Shown piece after piece: positions 16,924 through 41,462 of a DNA stretch of 43,160 nucleotides; position 1 is the stretch's first letter, and every line of letters begins with the position of its first letter. Position numbers and translations under genes: made by a program. Under the pieces are notes generated by a model. That model ran no database searches, was not told the DNA's origin, and was given only the letters and a program-made list of their open reading frames with translations. The DNA comes from a bacterium. Its GTDB lineage: Bacteria > Patescibacteriota > Minisyncoccia > Minisyncoccales > PEYH01. The stretch covers positions 1 to 43,160 of the forward strand of contig JAGGVA010000031.1 in NCBI GenBank assembly GCA_021158195.1, read 5' to 3'.

Positions 16924-18301
16924 AAGATATTTCTTTTATATATTTTTTAAAGAGATTACCCCGATGTTTGTAGTCTTTAAACAGGTTGAAACTTGCTGCC
17001 GCCGGTGAAAGAAGGCATATTTTTCCTTTCTTGGTGTTTTTAAACGCTTCCTCTACTGCTTTTTTCATATTTTGAACCAAGAAAACTTTAATTTTACGAA
17101 AGTTTTTATCCTCTAAAATTTTTAAAATTCTTTTATCAGTATCGGGAAAGAGAATCAAATTTTTTACTTTATATTTTGGAAGCAGATCTATAAGATTTTT
17201 GAAATTTTGCCCCCTATCATATCCGCCCAAAATGAGCGTGTTAACCTTTTTTAAGGTTTCTAAAGCCAAAATAGTTGCCTCTGGAATAGTTGCTAAAGAA
17301 TCATTATAAAATTTGATGTCTTTAAACTCCCCCACAAATTCTAAGCGATGTTTCAAGGGAACAAAAGTTTGCAATCCTTGTTTTATTTTGTCGTTGGTTA
17401 TTTTTAAAATTTTTGCCACTGCTATAGCAGCCATAATATTGTATAAGTAAGGTCGCAAACCTACAGGTATTTCTTTTAAAGGAATTACCTTTTGAGAGTT
17501 AAAGAAAAAGACCCCATTTTTAAAGCAAACACCTTTTCTTTGACTTTTAAGAGAAATAGGCACTATTTTTGATTTTACATTTGATGAGAAATCTTTCAGT
17601 AAAGGAATGTCTATATTTACTACAAAAAAATCTTCTGCTTTTTGCCATCGAGCGATATTCTTTTTAGCGCTGAAATATTCTTGAAAGTTTTTGTAATAAT
17701 CAAGATGCTCCCTAAAAATATTTAAAAATATTGCTATATGAGGGCTTGTTTTTAAGTCAGATAATTGATGAGAAGAAAGTTCATAAACAAAATAATCGCT
17801 TTTACTTTCAAAGAAATCAAGAGCAGGTTTGCCAATATTCCCTATCAACTTCACCTTTTTATTTGCCTTTTTTAAAATATGATAAATGAGTTTTGCCGTG
17901 GTGCTTTTTCCTTTACTTCCTGTTACGCCAATAGTTTTCTTTTTGTGCTTTTCTAAAAAAATATCTGTTTGCGAGGTAATAATTTGGTCTTTGGTTATAA
18001 AGGGAGCAATTTCTTTTTTGGGAATTCCCGGCGATTTTATGATAATTTCATAATTTCTTAAATATTGCAGATAGTTTTTTCCAAGATGTAGATTAATACT
18101 CTTATCTTTTTTAATGATTTTTTGAAAATTTTTTGAAAGTTGAGAAAAATCTTTCTGGTCTGCTAGGCCAATTTTCTTTTTTGGAAACCTTTTTCTCAAA
18201 AAGAAAAAAGTTGACTCCCCTTCTCTGGCAAGTCCTAAAATTATAGTTTTTTTCTTTTCTATTAAATCTAACCTCACTTTATTTAGAATATCATAAAACA
18301 A
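16901..18301 (-). CDS. murD: UDP-N-acetylmuramoylalanine--glutamate ligase (MurD family)
   Basis: 'IGVTGSKGKSTTAKLI' P-loop in Mur ligase architecture. The longest ORF starts at TTG (18301-18299), with no in-frame ATG nearby. Confidence 0.85.
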   Translation of the reverse strand: MFYDILNKVRLDLIEKKKTIILGLAREGESTFFFLRKRFPKKKIGLADQKDFSQLSKNFQKIIKKDKSINLHLGKNYLQYLRNYEIIIKSPGIPKKEIAPFITKDQIITSQTDIFLEKHKKKTIGVTGSKGKSTTAKLIYHILKKANKKVKLIGNIGKPALDFFESKSDYFVYELSSHQLSDLKTSPHIAIFLNIFREHLDYYKNFQEYFSAKKNIARWQKAEDFFVVNIDIPLLKDFSSNVKSKIVPISLKSQRKGVCFKNGVFFFNSQKVIPLKEIPVGLRPYLYNIMAAIAVAKILKITNDKIKQGLQTFVPLKHRLEFVGEFKDIKFYNDSLATIPEATILALETLKKVNTLILGGYDRGQNFKNLIDLLPKYKVKNLILFPDTDKRILKILEDKNFRKIKVFLVQNMKKAVEEAFKNTKKGKICLLSPAAASFNLFKDYKHRGNLFKKYIKEISYEKENKT

Positions 18302-18311
18302 TTTAGGTATA

Positions 18312-18351
18312 AAGAAAAAAGTAAAGAAAAGGGCGTCCTTAGCAGGACGCC
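18312..18351 (-). terminator. Rho-independent terminator ending the nuclease/129-aa module
   Basis: GGCGTCCT (18332-18339), TAGC loop, AGGACGCC (18344-18351). On the minus strand it is followed by CCTTTTCTTTACTTTTTTCTTT. Confidence 0.7.
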
Positions 18352-18361
18352 TTGGTTTTTA

Positions 18362-18751
18362 CTAAACAAGGAGTAGTTCTGTTTTCTTTTGAAGTTGTGC
18401 CCATTCAAAGATAAGATCAACGATAGCAATGATTGTTTGTGATGTTTGACAAGGAGCAATTTCGAACATTAAGGAATCTTCAATTATGCTAAATGCTAAG
18501 AGATTTTGAATCTTAATAAGATCTTGGGCTAGAGGGTGTGAAGATTTTTCATTGATCTCCTCTTCGGTGATTGTCCAGTTTACTGATCCCTTAATTATCC
18601 AAGGGTTTATTACCAAATAAGCAAAGCGAGAAGGCAATGGACGAGGAATCTTTTTAAGGACAACGACAAAACCCTTCTGTTTAAATACCATCTTTTTTCT
18701 TTTTGTTTTTATTGACCACCACACATATCGCCACCAATCTTTTATTTTCAT
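18362..18751 (-). CDS. Hypothetical 129-aa protein (no recognisable domain)
   Basis: The track ORF starts at GTG 18757, but that GTG is part of the SD GGAGGTG (18761-18755). ATG at 18751 has ideal 5-nt spacing. The N-terminus is W/K/R-rich. Confidence 0.5.
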   Translation of the reverse strand: MKIKDWWRYVWWSIKTKRKKMVFKQKGFVVVLKKIPRPLPSRFAYLVINPWIIKGSVNWTITEEEINEKSSHPLAQDLIKIQNLLAFSIIEDSLMFEIAPCQTSQTIIAIVDLIFEWAQLQKKTELLLV

Positions 18752-18764
18752 TTTCACCTCCTTC

Positions 18765-19739
18765 TTATAAAAGTCGGGGTTGCTTTACTCTTTGAAACCG
18801 GGCTATCTCTTCTAGTTCTGCTATCACCCTTTCGGGGTTTATCTTACCCCAGTTTAGTTCTCCTACCGGTAAGGGCACGCTTTTTCTCTTCCAGTGAGCA
18901 CATATTTCTAGATAATCACAGAATCTGCAGTGATCTCCGTAATTTTTAGGGAAAATTGCCAAGTCGCAATTTCGCAGAAAAGCCATTACCAAAAGAATGA
19001 GGTCTAAATAATCATCAATGGTTCTTGGAGTAATGATGGCGGATTTATCGATTTTTCTACCAGTAATTGGACATTTCCGCTTGTAACCTAATGGATATCT
19101 TATAATTCCAGCCTCTTTTCTGCCATAGAGTATTCTAAAAGCGAGACTGTAAATAGTGAATTGGTAACTATGATGAACAGGATATTGAAGTCGAGCATCT
19201 TCTAATCCATAATCTTGCCATCCGGTTTTAAGGTCTACTAGCCACCATTCACCGAAAATTTCTCTAATTTGATCAATGGACCCTACAATAGTCACCCCGT
19301 TTATTCCCGGCAAGGTTACAGAGAATCTTTTCTCTACTGCTACAGGAAAAGGTGCATCGTGGTTATCTTGCCAATACTTTCCTATCATTGAAGCCCCAAG
19401 TTTTAAAAATTCCTGAATCTGTTCTTGTGGATCTTTTCCAGAATCAAACCGGATATTTTCTTTACCTGTCTCCTCTATGATTCTTTGCCAGTTATAAATC
19501 CATAGTCTAATGGCACTCTTTTTAGTTTGAGGTAGAAGTTGAGTTTTTCCTTTGCGAATCCTTTTACTTCTTTGATTTTCGTTTAATCGGTAAAATCCAG
19601 CAATGGTGCGGTGTACTGCTACTCCAAAAATGGTTTTTATCCATTTGGGAGCACCTACTCTTTTTATATACGCAAGATAGTAAGAAAAGGGACAGGTTTG
19701 CCATCTTTCAAGTTTTGAGGCAGAAATTCTAATTGCCAT
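18765..19739 (-). CDS. Cas4/AddB-type PD-(D/E)XK nuclease with 4-Cys Fe-S cluster motif
   Basis: N-terminal Cys in 'LERWQTCPFSYYL'. Motifs 'GSIDQI', 'LVDLKTG' (D/ExK) and 'QFTIYSLAF' (QxxxY). C-terminal 'CRFCDYLEIC'. SD GGAGG at 19751-19747. Confidence 0.8.
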   Translation of the reverse strand: MAIRISASKLERWQTCPFSYYLAYIKRVGAPKWIKTIFGVAVHRTIAGFYRLNENQRSKRIRKGKTQLLPQTKKSAIRLWIYNWQRIIEETGKENIRFDSGKDPQEQIQEFLKLGASMIGKYWQDNHDAPFPVAVEKRFSVTLPGINGVTIVGSIDQIREIFGEWWLVDLKTGWQDYGLEDARLQYPVHHSYQFTIYSLAFRILYGRKEAGIIRYPLGYKRKCPITGRKIDKSAIITPRTIDDYLDLILLVMAFLRNCDLAIFPKNYGDHCRFCDYLEICAHWKRKSVPLPVGELNWGKINPERVIAELEEIARFQRVKQPRLL

Positions 19740-19776
19740 CCTTCCACCTCCTTTGGTAAGGTTCTTGAAATACTTT

Positions 19777-19805
19777 ATTTAACAAAAAATTTATTTTAAT
19801 GTCAA
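19777..19805 (-). promoter_or_regulatory. Candidate promoter of the nuclease module
   Basis: Minus strand reads TTGACA (19805-19800), 17 nt spacer, TTAAAT (19782-19777). It lies just outside the IS left end. Confidence 0.45.
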
Positions 19806-19818
19806 GTTAGTTTGGTAA

Positions 19819-20845
19819 TGTGTACACACATTTGGCGGTTTTTCAGGATAGGTTTATCCTGAATAATGTGTATAAAAATGTCTAAAAATATTAAAGAAGA
19901 AAGGTTAAGATGGATTAAACCCATCTATTACAAAAAGATAAAGCTGGTTGATGTAGCTAAGGTATGTCCTTACAGTAAAAGATCCTTAGAAAGGTGGCTG
20001 TCTAACTATCGGAAGTATGGAGAAAAAGGATTAGAGCCTAAATCCACCAGACCAAAAAGTAATCCTAAAGAAACACCTATTAGAATAAAACAAAGGATAA
20101 TTCAATTAAGAAAAGAGACTAAGCTTGGTGCTTTAAAACTTCATTGGAGGCTAAAGAAAGAAGGAATAGATATTCATCCAAGAACCATTGGTAAGATCTT
20201 GGTAAGATCTTAAAGAAAGAGGGATTAACTAGGAAATACAGAACAAAGAAGATTAAATACAAATATGTTAGATCTCTGCTTCAACCGGGTGAATTAGTAG
20301 AGATAGATGTTAAATATGTTCCTCAGAGAATAAAAGGTAAGAGATATTATCAGTTTACAGCCATAGATTCGGCTACCAGATGGAGATACTTAGAGGTTTT
20401 CGATGATATCTCTACTTTTAATGCTTTAAGATTCTTAAAGAAACTAGTTAAGATTGCTCCTTTTAGAGTTAGGGCTGTCAAAACAGACAATGGAAGCTGT
20501 TTTACTAATAGATATACGGGCTATCTTAGAAGTTCTGATCCTCTAAATCCAAGACTACATCCTTTTGATTTACTTTGTCAGGAGTTAGGTATTATTCATT
20601 ACCTCATAGATCCGGGTAAACCTCAGCAGAATGGCAAGGTAGAAAGAAGTCACAGAACAGATCAAGAGCAGTTCTATGATAGAACAACCTTTAAGAATAA
20701 AAGGGAACTAAAACAGAAATTAGAGATCTGGAATGAGGAATACAATAATCTAGAACATTGTAGTTTAAATGGAAAAACACCTAATGAAATGATACAATTA
20801 TTAACAAATCATGTTATTCAGGAACCGACAAAAGTGTGTGCCTAA
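19819..20845 (+). mobile_element. IS481-family insertion sequence (~1.0 kb), boundaries approximate
   Basis: Imperfect terminal inverted repeats: GTACACACATTTGGCGGTT (19822-19840) matches the reverse complement of 20823-20841 at 16/19. Contains an HTH plus DDE (rve) transposase. No clear target-site duplication found. Confidence 0.75.
19866..20845 (+). pseudogene. IS481-family DDE transposase disrupted by frameshift
   Basis: The HTH part (19866-20213) stops at TAA. The stop-free frame 20201-20845 encodes 'ELVEIDVKYVP..YYQFTAIDSATRW..VKTDNGSCF..NGKVERSHRTD' (D, D, E) and is absent from the ORF track because it has no Met. The break is an 11-bp tandem duplication at 20190-20211. Confidence 0.85.
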
Positions 20846-21528
20846 AACAGTTTTTCTTTAGAGGGATGGAAATCTTTATAACCGAGATAGATAAGATAAG
20901 CAACAAGAAGATAAAAAACATGAAAGAGTCTTCCTGCAGGAATATAAAGAACTCCTATAAGACCTATTCCTAAATAAATCACAAAGGCATAGAAAGAGTA
21001 GAAATTGGCGAGATTTTTTGAAGTGAACCCTTCTTTTTTTAAATTCCGAAAGATAAAGAGAAGTAATCCCAAGATAGATATAAAAATTATTCCTCCCAAA
21101 ACATAACCATGAGGAGGTGCTTTTGAGATATTATAATAAACTTCTTTTCTGGTTGAGATTTCCTGAGCCTTCATTAGAAATCCAAAATAATATAAAAAGA
21201 AGAGTATTATTCCCAGTAAAGAAGAGATAAAAAGAGTTATTCTTTTAGGATATACTTTCTGGACAACATAAATCAAACCTAAGATGCAGTGGATCCCAAA
21301 CCACACTCCTCCAAAAAAGATGATTGTTTGAGCAAAGGAAGGAAAAGTCTTCCAGCAGCCCAGAGCAACTCCATTGAAAATCCACCATAAAGCTCCGCTG
21401 AACCAGAAACTTGCATAAAGTAAATCTGTTAAAGATGGTTTTTTACATCTCGCGATCCACCAACAACAGAAGAAAGAAATCAAACCTATATAGACCGATG
21501 GTAGACCATCTGAAACAGAAAATACCAT
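20842..21528 (-). CDS. Hypothetical polytopic membrane protein (6-7 TM)
   Basis: 228 aa, W/F-rich helices. Start is 1 nt after the hydrolase stop (TAA-T-ATG). Its stop codon abuts the IS right end. Confidence 0.5.
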   Translation of the reverse strand: MVFSVSDGLPSVYIGLISFFCCWWIARCKKPSLTDLLYASFWFSGALWWIFNGVALGCWKTFPSFAQTIIFFGGVWFGIHCILGLIYVVQKVYPKRITLFISSLLGIILFFLYYFGFLMKAQEISTRKEVYYNISKAPPHGYVLGGIIFISILGLLLFIFRNLKKEGFTSKNLANFYSFYAFVIYLGIGLIGVLYIPAGRLFHVFYLLVAYLIYLGYKDFHPSKEKLF

Positions 21529-21529
21529 A

Positions 21530-22519
21530 TTAATAAATTTTTTTAATTGGATTTATTTTCTTTCCATCACTCCAAAATCCTATTTCTAAGGCCTTCTTGT
21601 TCTCACCTCTCACAATATCACAATTTTTATCAAAAAGAGCACAATCTATTGTAGCGTCAATAATCTTTCTATATCCATAATAACTCAAATTATTTTGGGG
21701 ATAAAAAGCCGAGACGTGATTACTCCATAAAGGAGGAGTTCCGTGAGTATCAGAAGGGATTAAAAACATATGTCTGTTTAGACCTTTTGTTTTTTGAAGA
21801 AGTTTTTTCTTCACATTTTCTCTTAAAATTAACCTATCGCTTTGAGAAAAGAGTGCAACAAACCAGGTATTAGGATTAAGATTGCTTAAATCTCCAAAGG
21901 GGAGTCCATAAATGGTAGTTGGAAGATAAGGAAAGGTTTCTCCCGGAGCAATCAAAATTATTGCTTTTGGCAAAGGGACTCCTTCCGAGAAAATATTTGT
22001 TGCTACTGCTCCACCCATTGATGTGCCAATTACAACAAATCGAGAGAGGTCATTTTTTGGAGCAATTTTTTTAATTTCTAAAATTGCCTCTTTTAGAACT
22101 TGTTTAGCGGTAAGAGGAAATGCTTTTGGCCGGAGTGAACTAAAAGTACCCTTTTGATAAGAAAGAAAAATAACAATATTCCCTCTCTTTACCTCGTGGA
22201 AAATTAAGGGAGAATACGTTTTGTAGTCTATAGGAGGATAGGAAGCCAATCCGTGCAAAAATAAAATTACCGGAGAAGAATTTAGATCTACCCCTTTAGG
22301 AATAAAGAGATAAAAATTGTTATCCTGGTGGGTGAATTTTTTAACTAAAACCTCCTTTGTTTTGTAATCACAAGGGTTGTTTAGAAGATTAGGCCACACA
22401 TTCTGATTCCGCCCTTTTGGATGATAAAATAAGGAATACCAAACAAAATAGAAATAATAGAAAGCCCCAAAAAAGACAAGAAAGATGATTATTAATTTTA
22501 TTAGAATTTTTTTTCTCAT
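21530..22519 (-). CDS. Membrane-anchored alpha/beta hydrolase
   Basis: N-terminal TM helix. 'VILFLHGLAS', nucleophile elbow 'VIGTSMGGAVA' (GxSxG), and candidate Asp 'SQSDRL' and His 'SDTHGTP'. Confidence 0.7.
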   Translation of the reverse strand: MRKKILIKLIIIFLVFFGAFYYFYFVWYSLFYHPKGRNQNVWPNLLNNPCDYKTKEVLVKKFTHQDNNFYLFIPKGVDLNSSPVILFLHGLASYPPIDYKTYSPLIFHEVKRGNIVIFLSYQKGTFSSLRPKAFPLTAKQVLKEAILEIKKIAPKNDLSRFVVIGTSMGGAVATNIFSEGVPLPKAIILIAPGETFPYLPTTIYGLPFGDLSNLNPNTWFVALFSQSDRLILRENVKKKLLQKTKGLNRHMFLIPSDTHGTPPLWSNHVSAFYPQNNLSYYGYRKIIDATIDCALFDKNCDIVRGENKKALEIGFWSDGKKINPIKKIY

Positions 22520-22529
22520 TTTAACTTAA

Positions 22530-22558
22530 CAAAAATCGGAACGAGAACAGTTCTCGTT
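22530..22558 (-). terminator. Hairpin with weak T-tract after the PP-loop gene (terminator/attenuator)
   Basis: AACGAGAA (22540-22547), CAG loop, TTCTCGTT (22551-22558). The minus strand continues CCGATTTTTG. One arm overlaps the stop codon. Confidence 0.45.
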
Positions 22559-23840
22559 ATTTTTTAATGTGTAATTCTTCAAATTTTTTTAAAAGAAATG
22601 GTATCTTGTTTCTTTTTTTTGCTTGTTTGAGAGCCAAAGAAAAAGCCAAAATTGTTTCTTTTTTTGTTCCTACACATTCAAAGGGCTTCTTCTCTTTTTT
22701 ACTTATTAATTTTAACATAAAGGGCAAAAGAGATCTATCTTCAAAAAGATTTTTCCCGAAAATCTTTATCAAGTTTTTTTCTTCCAAGAATGGATATAAA
22801 ACAGAAAATACAAATAAACATTTTGGACATTTTAAACACCATTTTGGTCTTTTTGCGGAAATTTTATAAGCATTATTACAACTTAAAAAGGCATTGTGAT
22901 ATTGGGTAAATTGAGAGAATATTTTTGCGATTTCTAAATCAGACAGGTTACGTATAGGGCTATAAATGCTGATATTCTGAACTAAAAATCTTTTTCTATA
23001 CTCATTAAAAATTTTTTCAAATTCACTACTTTTTGACCATTGATGGTTAATCCACCTCTTTTTGTATTTTAAATTGGGTTCGTTGGCGCTTTTTTCCCAC
23101 GCAAATGCCACTTTAGGATATTGAAATATATAAGCCGCAAGAAGAGTTAAAAATGACAAGAAGGCAGAAAAAGGCACATGGCCATTTAAATATCCTTTTG
23201 AGTTTAGTTCAAAAAGCCTTGGATCTATTTTTCTTTGAGCAACAATTATTTCTTTTATTTTTGATATTTTTGCAACTTTTCTTTGAGGGGTTTTAGGATT
23301 AAAAAGAAAAATTCCTATTTTTTTTGCCTTCGATTTTTCTGATTCTAACACAACTATTGAATCCTTCCCTCCTCCGATTGGAATAAGAATTTTACGAGAA
23401 TCTGCTTCTATTTTGCTAGCCCTGTATATCCTTTTTTGAGGATTGGTCTCAATTTTTAAAAAACCTCTTCGAGTAAAATCAATTTTATTTTCGTAAAAGT
23501 ACTGTCCCATTCCCTTCGAAATAATTTTTCTTAAAAACCTTTTTCCTTCAGTTGACAAATTTCCTGATTCAATAAAAATTTTTGGAGAACAAGTAAGTTT
23601 CCAGTAGTTTAACATTTCGATTAGCCCTAAATGAAAAACAAGATTTTCAAGAGTAGGTTCGTCAATTGTTTCGATTTTCTTTTGGGGTATGTTTTTTAAA
23701 ACAATATCTGTTTTAAACTTTAAATCTGGCTTGATAGAAAAATAAAAAGAAATCAAAAAGTTACCATTCTTGAACTTGTAAGAATAGTTTTCATAAACAA
23801 ACTCAGGGTATTTTTTTCGCAAAAGAGTTGTTTTTTTCAT
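22557..23840 (-). CDS. PP-loop (SGGxDS-type) ATP pyrophosphatase superfamily protein; possible MurL-like epimerase
   Basis: Start trimmed to ATG 23840 ('MKKTTLLRKKYPEF'), because the upstream 119 codons overlap mraY out of frame. 'ILIPIGGGKDSIVVL' PP-loop and 'WCLKCPKCLF' Cys motif. Located in the dcw cluster next to mraY. Confidence 0.6.
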   Translation of the reverse strand: MKKTTLLRKKYPEFVYENYSYKFKNGNFLISFYFSIKPDLKFKTDIVLKNIPQKKIETIDEPTLENLVFHLGLIEMLNYWKLTCSPKIFIESGNLSTEGKRFLRKIISKGMGQYFYENKIDFTRRGFLKIETNPQKRIYRASKIEADSRKILIPIGGGKDSIVVLESEKSKAKKIGIFLFNPKTPQRKVAKISKIKEIIVAQRKIDPRLFELNSKGYLNGHVPFSAFLSFLTLLAAYIFQYPKVAFAWEKSANEPNLKYKKRWINHQWSKSSEFEKIFNEYRKRFLVQNISIYSPIRNLSDLEIAKIFSQFTQYHNAFLSCNNAYKISAKRPKWCLKCPKCLFVFSVLYPFLEEKNLIKIFGKNLFEDRSLLPFMLKLISKKEKKPFECVGTKKETILAFSLALKQAKKRNKIPFLLKKFEELHIKK

Positions 23841-23852
23841 TTTTTTCGATAC

Positions 23853-23873
23853 GGGGAGATACCCAATCTCCCC
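23853..23873 (-). other. GC-rich hairpin in the mraY / PP-loop gene spacer
   Basis: GGGGAGAT (23853-23860), ACCCA loop, ATCTCCCC (23866-23873). No T-tract on the transcribed strand. Confidence 0.6.
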
Positions 23874-23932
23874 GACCCCCTCTGTGGATTTTGGGTGATT
23901 GATTTCTTTAGAATCGTCAATCCTTAAAACAC

Positions 23933-25024
23933 TTATCCCAGCAGCGCAATTGCTATTCCTACGATAGCAGCGACTACACCAATCACCCAAAAACGCATTG
24001 TTACTTTGTAGTGGGGCCAGCCTTTTCCTTCGAAATGATGATGAATTGGGGCTGCCAAAAATAATTTTCTTTTGAAGTATTTTTTCCAAAAAAGTTGAAG
24101 GATGACCGAAAGCACTTCTATTACTAAAAGAATGCCGATTATAGGCAAAACTAATACAGAATTTGAAAGAAAAGCCACTACTGTGAGAGCAGCACAAAGA
24201 GCCATTACTCCGGTTTCTCCCATATAAAAACGGGCTGGAGGAATATTAAACCACAAGAAAGCCAGAATGGCTCCGGCAATTGAAGCGCAAAAAGCGGCTA
24301 AGTCAATTTGTCCTCTAAAAAAAGCAATTGCTCCATAAGCGCCAAATATTGTTGTAAAAGCCCCTCCTGCCAACCCGTCTAATCCATCAATAACTCCTCC
24401 AGCATAAGTAGCCATCATTACAAGAATAAAAAATGGAATGTAAAGAACTCCCAGATAAATATCGCCATTGCCGGGAATATGTATTGTTTCCCAGCCAAGT
24501 TTATAGTAAAACCATAATCCTCCCACAAAGCCAATAAGAAACATTGAAAATAATCGGAATTTTAAACTTAATCCTCCACCAATATACTTTCCTTTACCTT
24601 TTGTTTGTAAAAAATCATCAACAAAGCCAACGATGGCTCCAGCGATAAGAGCAAAAAGTGGCAACCAAGTTTGTCCTCGGCTTAAAAAGTTTATTTTTTT
24701 AAAGATATCAACTCCTGTTTTTGAAAGAAGAAAGAAAAGAAAAATTACTATGGAAGGAATAACCCATACCAGAAGGCCCCCAAAACGCGGAACTTTTATT
24801 TCCTCTTCTTTGTGAAACTTCGAGACAACCGGGATTTCTTTTCCATCTATTGATTTTGTTCGAGCATTTTTTTTCCAGAGTTTATGTTTGTATAAAAAGT
24901 TAGTAAGAAGAGGAGTTGAAAAAAAAGCAATCAAAAAAGAAATGGTGCCGATAAAAAAAACTTTTAGAGTATTGATTACTAAAGCAGGATCTGACAAATA
25001 AAGTGGAAGATTGTTGTTTACCAT
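23933..25024 (-). CDS. mraY: Phospho-N-acetylmuramoyl-pentapeptide transferase
   Basis: 'VPRFGGLL', 'VGFVDDFLQ', 'DGLDGLAGG' and 'APIHHHFEGKGW'. Confidence 0.95.
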   Translation of the reverse strand: MVNNNLPLYLSDPALVINTLKVFFIGTISFLIAFFSTPLLTNFLYKHKLWKKNARTKSIDGKEIPVVSKFHKEEEIKVPRFGGLLVWVIPSIVIFLFFLLSKTGVDIFKKINFLSRGQTWLPLFALIAGAIVGFVDDFLQTKGKGKYIGGGLSLKFRLFSMFLIGFVGGLWFYYKLGWETIHIPGNGDIYLGVLYIPFFILVMMATYAGGVIDGLDGLAGGAFTTIFGAYGAIAFFRGQIDLAAFCASIAGAILAFLWFNIPPARFYMGETGVMALCAALTVVAFLSNSVLVLPIIGILLVIEVLSVILQLFWKKYFKRKLFLAAPIHHHFEGKGWPHYKVTMRFWVIGVVAAIVGIAIALLG

Positions 25025-41385: not shown

Positions 41386-41411
41386 AATTTTTATAAAAAT
41401 TAATTATTAAC

Positions 41412-41462
41412 TACCCACTACTCACTACCCACTATTCACTACCCACTATTCACTACTCACTG
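41412..41462. repeat. Seven tandem heptamers TAYYCAC (three 14-mers TACCCACTAYTCAC plus a partial)
   Basis: Read directly. On the minus strand it reads GTGAGTA GTGAATA GTGGGTA GTGAATA GTGGGTA GTGAGTA GTGGGTA. The upstream gene's stop codon (41453-41455) lies inside the array, which ends 26 nt before the ppsA ATG. Confidence 0.85.

Follow-up and report, generated by a model that had tools for sequence, protein, structure and literature searches.

A PD-(D/E)XK nuclease gene and its small partner gene form a two-gene unit between murL and murD in Patescibacteria

Organisation of the two-gene unit

We analysed a 43,160-nucleotide stretch of DNA (contig JAGGVA010000031.1 of assembly GCA_021158195.1, hereafter the window) from a bacterium of the Patescibacteriota, focusing on two adjacent genes that encode a Cas4-like nuclease and a small partner protein. 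Both open reading frames (ORFs) lie on the minus strand, together with a promoter-like site and a terminator. The nuclease gene (19739..18765, 324 aa) has an ATG start with the Shine-Dalgarno sequence GGAGGTGGAAGG upstream, and the partner gene (18751..18362, 129 aa) has an ATG start preceded by the Shine-Dalgarno sequence GGAGGTGAAA. The latter lies within the 13-nt intergenic gap, 3 nt after the TAA stop codon of the nuclease. An alternative GTG start for the partner at 18757, offered by the ORF listing, was rejected, as it falls within the Shine-Dalgarno sequence. The promoter-like site (19805..19777), read directly from the sequence, consists of TTGACA (19805-19800), a 17-nt spacer and TTAAAT (19782-19777), and ends 37 nt upstream of the nuclease ATG. 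A consensus promoter scan passes over this site because the second hexamer lacks an A at position 2. The closest relatives (L002-L004; related loci are referred to by L numbers) carry TTGACT-17-TATAAT at the homologous position. A terminator scan identified an intrinsic terminator 3' of the partner stop codon (18351..18322), with GGCGTCCTGCTAAGGACGCC followed by the T-run CTTTTCTTTA; the stem (18351..18332) contains 8 pairs, 6 of them G-C. A hairpin and T-run follow the gene preceding murD, be it nuclease or partner, in all 14 related loci inspected. While a G+C-rich hairpin is kept at the same place, the stem sequence varies between lineages, and it is therefore the structure rather than the sequence that is conserved. 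A first-pass annotation, made from the sequence alone, had described a self-contained module with its own promoter, two Shine-Dalgarno sequences and a dedicated terminator, and all of these were found as described. The two genes are a real, self-contained two-gene transcription unit.

Downstream of this unit, a near-invariant element, TGATATTCT (18285-18293, minus strand), is located approximately 25-35 nt past the terminator and resembles an extended -10 promoter (TGn + TATTCT). It ends 7 nt before the GTG at 18277, and no Shine-Dalgarno sequence is present there. The same element occurs in L001, L002, L005, L008, L012, L019, L020, L022, L024, L031-34 and L038, with the encoded proteins only ~50% identical, and suggests a leaderless murD-ftsW-murG transcript. 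The TTG start listed for murD at 18301 was rejected in favour of GTG 18277, which matches the gene calls of the relatives and is downstream of the conserved promoter element. With its own hairpin terminator and a separate promoter for murD, the nuclease unit is insulated from both neighbours, which weakens a purely operonic link to the cell-wall genes.

The nuclease and partner families

The nuclease matches Pfam PF12705 (PDDEXK_1) across model positions 1-246 of 247 (E=6.8e-24, 85.6 bits, threshold 22), and is annotated by NCBI as a 'PD-(D/E)XK nuclease family protein'. Its best match in PHROGs is phrog_69 'exonuclease' (E=7.9e-25), while a scan against PADLOC-DB v2 gave weak Cas4 and Aga_Cas4-like matches. 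In an alignment of 13 homologues, reaching down to 43% identity, the RecB-type catalytic residues E136, D156, D169-L-K171 and Q193-x3-Y197 are invariant, as are the four cysteines C16 and C271-x2-C274-x5-C280. This bears out the full RecB/Cas4 motif set and the 1+3 cysteine arrangement reported at first pass. The four-cysteine arrangement is that of iron-sulphur (Fe-S) nucleases of the Cas4/AddB type, and cluster binding is predicted accordingly from the sequence.

An AlphaFold2 model of the nuclease was obtained with a predicted local distance difference test (pLDDT) score of 77.5. The top Foldseek matches of this model are to chain A of AdnAB (AdnA; E 2.7e-6 to 1.8e-4, including 7sjr_A, 9np6_A and 6ppu_A at 3e-6 to 2e-5), followed by AddAB (4cej), RecE, RecB and Cas4. 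Sequence searches of the PDB with either the nuclease or its family profile gave nothing significant. The sole PDB sequences touched by the profile belong to ACE1 (9IAB/9IAC), at a non-significant E of 0.2-0.6, with alignment in the regions of the D-x-K motif and the C-terminal CxxC. Taking motifs and predicted fold together, the protein is best described as a stand-alone PD-(D/E)XK enzyme of the AddB/AdnA/Cas4 type, consisting of the nuclease domain only.

All 24 homologues compared end in a C-terminal tail of the form QPRL[FL]-COOH, or QPRLK[FL] followed by basic residues, with a few varying at Q, R or K. The QPRL[FL] tail is disordered, with low pLDDT, in the AlphaFold2 model. Bacterial β-clamp-binding motifs take the form of a pentapeptide, Qxx[LM]F, or a hexapeptide, QxxLxF/L. 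The nuclease tail fits both forms, and resembles a sliding-clamp-binding motif by pattern match only.

The partner is annotated as hypothetical by NCBI and has no match in Pfam, PADLOC, PHROGs or NCBIfam. Relatives numbered 4 in a word-indexed search and 8 with a profile, and an exhaustive profile search of 1.84 billion protein representatives yielded 18 members of the family. A partner-profile match to one MurD, at 15 bits, was judged to be noise. Conservation of the 129-aa ORF, which the first-pass annotation had made a test of its proposal, extends down to ~23% identity, with a core motif of NW.I...EGEINE.S.HPLA....FSI..S. Judged by this conservation, the partner belongs to a real, constrained and previously undescribed family of small proteins. 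No cysteine is conserved in the family, and the partner itself therefore cannot hold an Fe-S cluster.

The AlphaFold2 model of the partner (pLDDT 84, predicted template modelling score 0.75) comprises an N-terminal helix of low confidence, two layers rich in beta hairpins and a long helix at the C-terminus. We submitted this model to Foldseek, as the first-pass annotation had proposed, and found that the top four PDB matches all adopt the Nfu_N fold: SAV1430, the human NFU1 N-domain, a yeast NifU-like N-domain and SeR13. The top two have a probability of 0.91-0.92, with E 0.13-0.44 and template modelling scores, by target, of 0.53-0.56. No match was found among viral structures. At the sequence level, two distant family members approach the Pfam Nfu_N model (PF08712): P0047 scores 27.1 bits, at the threshold of 27, and P0043 scores 19.3 bits. 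P0047 alone among 23 family members reaches the gathering threshold. The best PDB sequence match of both proteins is the NFU1 N-domain, and the motif region HPLA..L..I.gl..FSI..DS..v of the partner family aligns with Nfu_N sequence. We regard it as probable that the partner adopts a divergent Nfu_N-like fold.

P0043 and P0047 (L014 5001-5408, L016 5001-5351; also L015 and L017) are encoded directly downstream of recR, in a dnaB...recR...rplU neighbourhood, and there is no PD-(D/E)XK nuclease near them. The DnaB of L014 contains an intein with a LAGLIDADG domain. The adjacency to recR comes from one syntenic lineage only, and is treated here as a lead and not as evidence.

The N-terminal region of the partner invites a different explanation. 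Residues 1-22 carry a net charge of approximately +6.5 and four tryptophans, confirming the basic, Trp-rich N-terminus pointed out earlier, and the partner could be a DNA-binding or specificity subunit, with no relation to Fe-S biology, that loads or orients the nuclease on DNA via this arm, the likeness to Nfu_N reflecting merely a shared small α/β fold. The indirect nature of the sequence link between the core family and Nfu_N is in keeping with such a role, as is the position of the more distant relatives next to recR. However, the remainder of the protein, including the globular core, is neutral, and the basic helix is absent from several family members. Given in addition that the top four structural matches are all Nfu_N and that two members match the Pfam Nfu_N model, we consider a DNA-binding role of this kind unlikely.

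Gene neighbourhood, pairing and inheritance

A comparison of Patescibacteria contigs in which the nuclease is 45-95% identical to that of the window reveals a recurring gene order: response regulator - aspS - penicillin-binding protein - mraY - murL - [nuclease - partner] - murD - ftsW - murG - gltX - small ORF - xerC-like. The nuclease is followed by the partner, 11-13 nt apart and between murL and murD, in the window and in L002-4/18/28, L001, L012/13/21, L019, L020, L032, L034 and L039. The same slot holds the nuclease alone in L005-7/30, L008/9, L031, L033 and L038, and the partner alone in L022/23 and probably L024. The two genes also occur together elsewhere: in L026/27 they lie upstream of rpsB-tsf with a 4-nt overlap; in L010/11/25/36 the partner is divergent from a 642-aa gene that is followed by the nuclease; and in L037 they are split by a minus-strand gene for a LAGLIDADG/helix-turn-helix (HTH) protein. 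In L010 and L025 nuclease and partner are no more than 3 kb apart. A search of GTDB species representatives with alignment A1 returned four loci. The neighbourhood search proposed at first pass thus found the pair conserved as neighbours in several contexts, and not within defence islands.

Two of the intervening genes are described here in their own right. The L037 gene (1489-2403, minus strand) is inserted in the opposite orientation, exactly between nuclease and partner; its 304-aa product is a LAGLIDADG_2 endonuclease that contains several HTH domains. The 642-aa protein (L010 4668-6596, L025 1710-3638), situated between partner and nuclease, has no Pfam match and contains a central hydrophobic segment.

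In a rough neighbour-joining tree of the nuclease, adjacent pairs 11-13 nt apart occur in four clades. Four nuclease-only lineages are nested among pair-bearing ones, and the pair is present on each of the two deepest branches. This suggests that the pair is ancestral and that one gene has been lost from the locus repeatedly. The pair appears old and vertically inherited, and is linked in at least three unrelated neighbourhoods, a pattern usually seen with genes that are functional partners.

These observations run counter to the earlier proposal that the module is horizontally acquired cargo, given that relatives with a nuclease only 45-64% identical carry the pair, or the nuclease by itself, in the same murL-murD slot. 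That proposal had drawn on a G+C content of ~40%, against ~23% in murD. The G+C content is indeed raised, but the size of the difference was overstated: the values are 38.5% for the nuclease, 34.9% for the partner and 29.8% for murD, compared with a mean of 33.4 ± 2.7% for the 40 gene-sized ORFs of the window. Two unrelated window genes reach 39.6% and 41.2%. A raised nuclease G+C content (35-40%) is seen in every relative compared, and is a trait of the family. The window itself is an ordinary segment of a Patescibacteria chromosome, with genes for tRNA synthetases, a MiaB-like protein, pyruvate phosphate dikinase (PPDK), an aldolase, UppS, glycosyltransferases and the division and cell wall (dcw) cluster. 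Neither tRNA genes nor Rfam RNAs nor CRISPR-like repeats were found in it. Between the PPDK and CoA-ligase-like genes, the spacer holds approximately 4 copies of a 14-nt tandem repeat, TATTCACTACCCAC (41405-41461).

Variable DNA is found directly upstream of the pair. In the closest relatives (L002-4, core genes 92-97% identical), murL is followed directly by the nuclease promoter. The window has in addition, between murL and the nuclease, genes for a 329-aa α/β hydrolase and a 228-aa membrane protein (20842-22519, minus strand) and an IS481-type insertion sequence (IS; ~19821-20848, plus strand) that ends ~16 nt upstream of the -35 box of the promoter-like site. The presence of an IS481 neighbour had been noted at first pass and is confirmed: an exact 11-bp tandem duplication (20188-20209, TTGGTAAGATC x2) breaks the transposase, and deleting one copy restores a 322-aa ORF with HTH_32 and rve domains. 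Imperfect terminal inverted repeats (...ACACACATTTGGCGGTT / ...CACACACTTTTGTCGGTT) are present. As the closest relatives lack the hydrolase, the membrane gene and the IS, the mobile or exchanged DNA is the upstream insert and not the nuclease pair. The hydrolase and membrane genes also occur at the same site in L019 (2212-3889), L020 (2144-3821) and L032 (147-1890), and these copies are 83-90% identical to those of the window; the nuclease, murD and murL of the same three loci are 50-65% identical to the window's. In L033 the hydrolase is present and the membrane gene is absent. The two genes resemble a cassette that has been exchanged, or else an unusually constrained pair.

The variable, IS-bearing DNA upstream of the pair would be compatible with a minimal nuclease-based defence or conflict module, as suggested at first pass, in which the nuclease degrades invading DNA and the partner serves as sensor, inhibitor or immunity factor. 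Enzymes of the Cas4 family can act in defence, for example ACE1 with Argonaute (PMC12094033). CPR (candidate phyla radiation) bacteria rarely carry CRISPR, and solo Cas4 has been suggested to serve in defence or repair (PMC5704561). In the present case, the PADLOC run returned only the weak Cas4 and Aga_Cas4-like matches for the nuclease and none for the partner, and no defence system or neighbouring defence gene was found in either the 43-kb window or the 39 loci. Even deeply diverged relatives keep the position fixed, the contexts are all housekeeping (dcw cluster, rpsB-tsf, rplJ/L) and the composition shows no sign of transfer. We therefore hold a defence function to be improbable. That the unit is not a CRISPR adaptation module, as already recognised, is confirmed by the lack of cas genes among the annotated neighbours in the window and of an array, and by the Cas4 model TIGR00372, which scores 27.8 bits against a cut-off of 65.

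Another earlier suggestion, that an exonuclease and an accessory protein are left over from a phage or plasmid recombination module, could draw on phrog_69 as the best PHROGs match of the nuclease and on the adjoining IS element. No phage genes, integrase-flanked island or attachment repeats were found nearby, however, and the partner has neither a PHROGs match nor a viral structural match. With the synteny kept across 45% identity and all motifs intact, such an origin is very improbable indeed.

The position of the majority of homologues between murL and murD raises the question of whether the unit is tied to cell-wall synthesis or division, for example in clearing or resolving septal DNA, with the amphipathic basic helix of the partner binding the membrane. 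The recU-ponA arrangement of Firmicutes offers a parallel for a nuclease tied to cell-wall or division genes. The partner alone is kept at exactly the murL-murD slot in L022-L024, and its N-terminal helix is Trp-/Lys-rich and moderately amphipathic. On the other hand, this helix is missing from several family members, the pair is also found far from dcw genes in L026/27, L010/11/25/36 and L037, and in every locus the unit comes with a promoter and terminator of its own, with murD under a separate conserved promoter. We consider this link doubtful.

With respect to the flanking genes themselves, the ORF listed for murL (546 aa, 22557-24197, minus strand, TTG start) overlaps mraY. The real gene probably encodes a 426-aa MurL-type epimerase starting at ~23837 (MKKTTLLRKKYPEF...). 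This protein is 82% identical to relatives annotated MurL_N/MurL_epimerase_C, and has no match in the local copy of Pfam. The lineage appears to use the route of MurL and an L-Glu-adding MurD, the genes of which have the nuclease unit between them.

Proposed role and comparison with known systems

On balance, though guardedly, we favour the view that the two genes are a long-standing, vertically inherited housekeeping operon of a CPR/Paceibacteria-like lineage, encoding a repair-type nuclease and an Nfu_N-like accessory subunit. The nuclease would be a counterpart of AddB/AdnA without a motor, working on DNA ends or flaps during recombinational repair in a reduced genome, and its invariant disordered QPRL[FL] tail would recruit it to the β sliding clamp. 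The partner would be made from the same transcript, probably via coupled translation, and act as an accessory subunit bound to the nuclease. The analogy with the NFU1 N-domain suggests that it may shield or modulate the exposed [4Fe-4S] subdomain of the nuclease; alternatively, its basic Trp-rich N-terminal helix might tether the enzyme to DNA or membrane.

In AddAB and AdnAB, the Fe-S nuclease domain of the RecB type cleaves the 5' strand as double-strand breaks are resected. In AdnAB, the Fe-S cluster is carried by the nuclease domain of AdnA, to which the unwound 5' strand is delivered (PMC8789073). For the NFU1 N-domain, a role in protecting, gating and modulating a [4Fe-4S] cluster has been proposed, and the same report describes the role of the Nfu N-domain fold as unknown (PMC10388178). 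Nfu proteins are adaptors for [4Fe-4S] clients (PMC5014551). On this basis, a role for the partner as Fe-S stabiliser or modulator is the most economical guess. A literature search on Nfu_N, SAV1430 and PF08712 found nothing relevant.

Several observations weigh against this proposal. The Foldseek E values across the top four Nfu_N matches of the partner are 0.13-0.73, and the window partner itself gives no PF08712 match even at E<=10. Partner family profiles (A6, A7) searched against PDB sequences found no Nfu_N chain, and an hhalign comparison of the family with a human NFU1 N-domain sequence gave a non-significant E of 0.21, which is not used as evidence. The nuclease occurs without the partner at the locus in L005-9, L031, L033 and L038, and the partner without the nuclease in L022-24; pairing is therefore not obligatory in cis. 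The putative clamp motif is a match of pattern, and some other function could lie behind the nearly constant location within the cell-wall cluster.

Even so, the cargo or defence reading of this locus should be replaced by one of a core repair-type nuclease with a novel accessory subunit, and recognising the module as core, not cargo, sets right what could easily be annotated as a defence island. Ultra-small bacteria and archaea are enriched in solo Cas4-like nucleases, whose function has been an open question since 2017 or earlier (PMC5704561). The conserved and probably co-translated partner offers a concrete way into this question. It also gives the tiny, unannotated partner family its first functional context, and bears on the role of the Nfu N-domain fold. 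A bolder version, in which the pair is a two-subunit substitute for AddAB/RecBCD in Patescibacteria, made up of a clamp-docked AddB-like [4Fe-4S] nuclease and a dedicated Nfu_N-like cluster guardian, is unlikely in our estimation. If true, the partner would be the first Nfu N-domain homologue to act as a permanent partner of a DNA-repair enzyme, outside the Fe-S assembly line, and the recR-adjacent relatives may extend the guardian principle to other repair proteins.

The partner shares with Nfu_N proteins (PF08712; NFU1 2LTM and 2LTL, SAV1430 1PQX and 2FFM) the character of a small, Cys-less α/β domain. In contrast to these, it lacks a fused CXXC NifU domain, begins with an additional basic helix and ends in a long one, and is encoded with a nuclease rather than with Fe-S assembly genes. 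Clamp-tethered nucleases such as NucS/EndoMS and MutL carry a short Q-x-x-L-(x)-F/L peptide at a disordered C-terminus or close to it. The architecture of the window nuclease differs from theirs, and the likeness of the tail is by pattern only.

Among the enzymes related to the nuclease, AddB and AdnA have nuclease domains with the same RecB-type PD-(D/E)XK core and an Fe-S subdomain formed from one N-terminal and three C-terminal cysteines. Unlike AddAB/AdnAB, however, the 324-aa window nuclease lacks a helicase or motor domain, is accompanied by a small partner that is not a helicase, and ends in a conserved peptide tail. The window encodes no UvrD-like helicase, its only ORFs above 600 aa being those for a tRNA synthetase and PPDK, and no helicase-sized ORF is adjacent in the related loci. 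CRISPR Cas4 (TIGR00372 / COG1468) shares the superfamily, the four-cysteine arrangement and the QhxxY motif; the window nuclease, which falls short of the Cas4 cut-off as given above, is ~120 aa longer and is not accompanied by cas1/cas2 or an array. To the Argonaute-associated Cas4-family enzyme ACE1 there is the non-significant profile match already described, and no Argonaute gene is located near the window nuclease.

A further parallel is provided by the solo Cas4-family/PF12705 nucleases of CPR and DPANN surveyed by Hudaiberdiev et al. in 2017 (PMC5704561), which are likewise stand-alone, vertically inherited and found in small genomes without CRISPR. The survey reported that solo Cas4-family genes in CPR are mostly inherited vertically, their function in repair or defence being unknown. 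It described no conserved partner, and PF12705 was treated briefly. The window nuclease is a new member of this known class, the solo Cas4-family/PF12705 nucleases of CPR, and for it we document a partner family of its own and a constant location between murL and murD.

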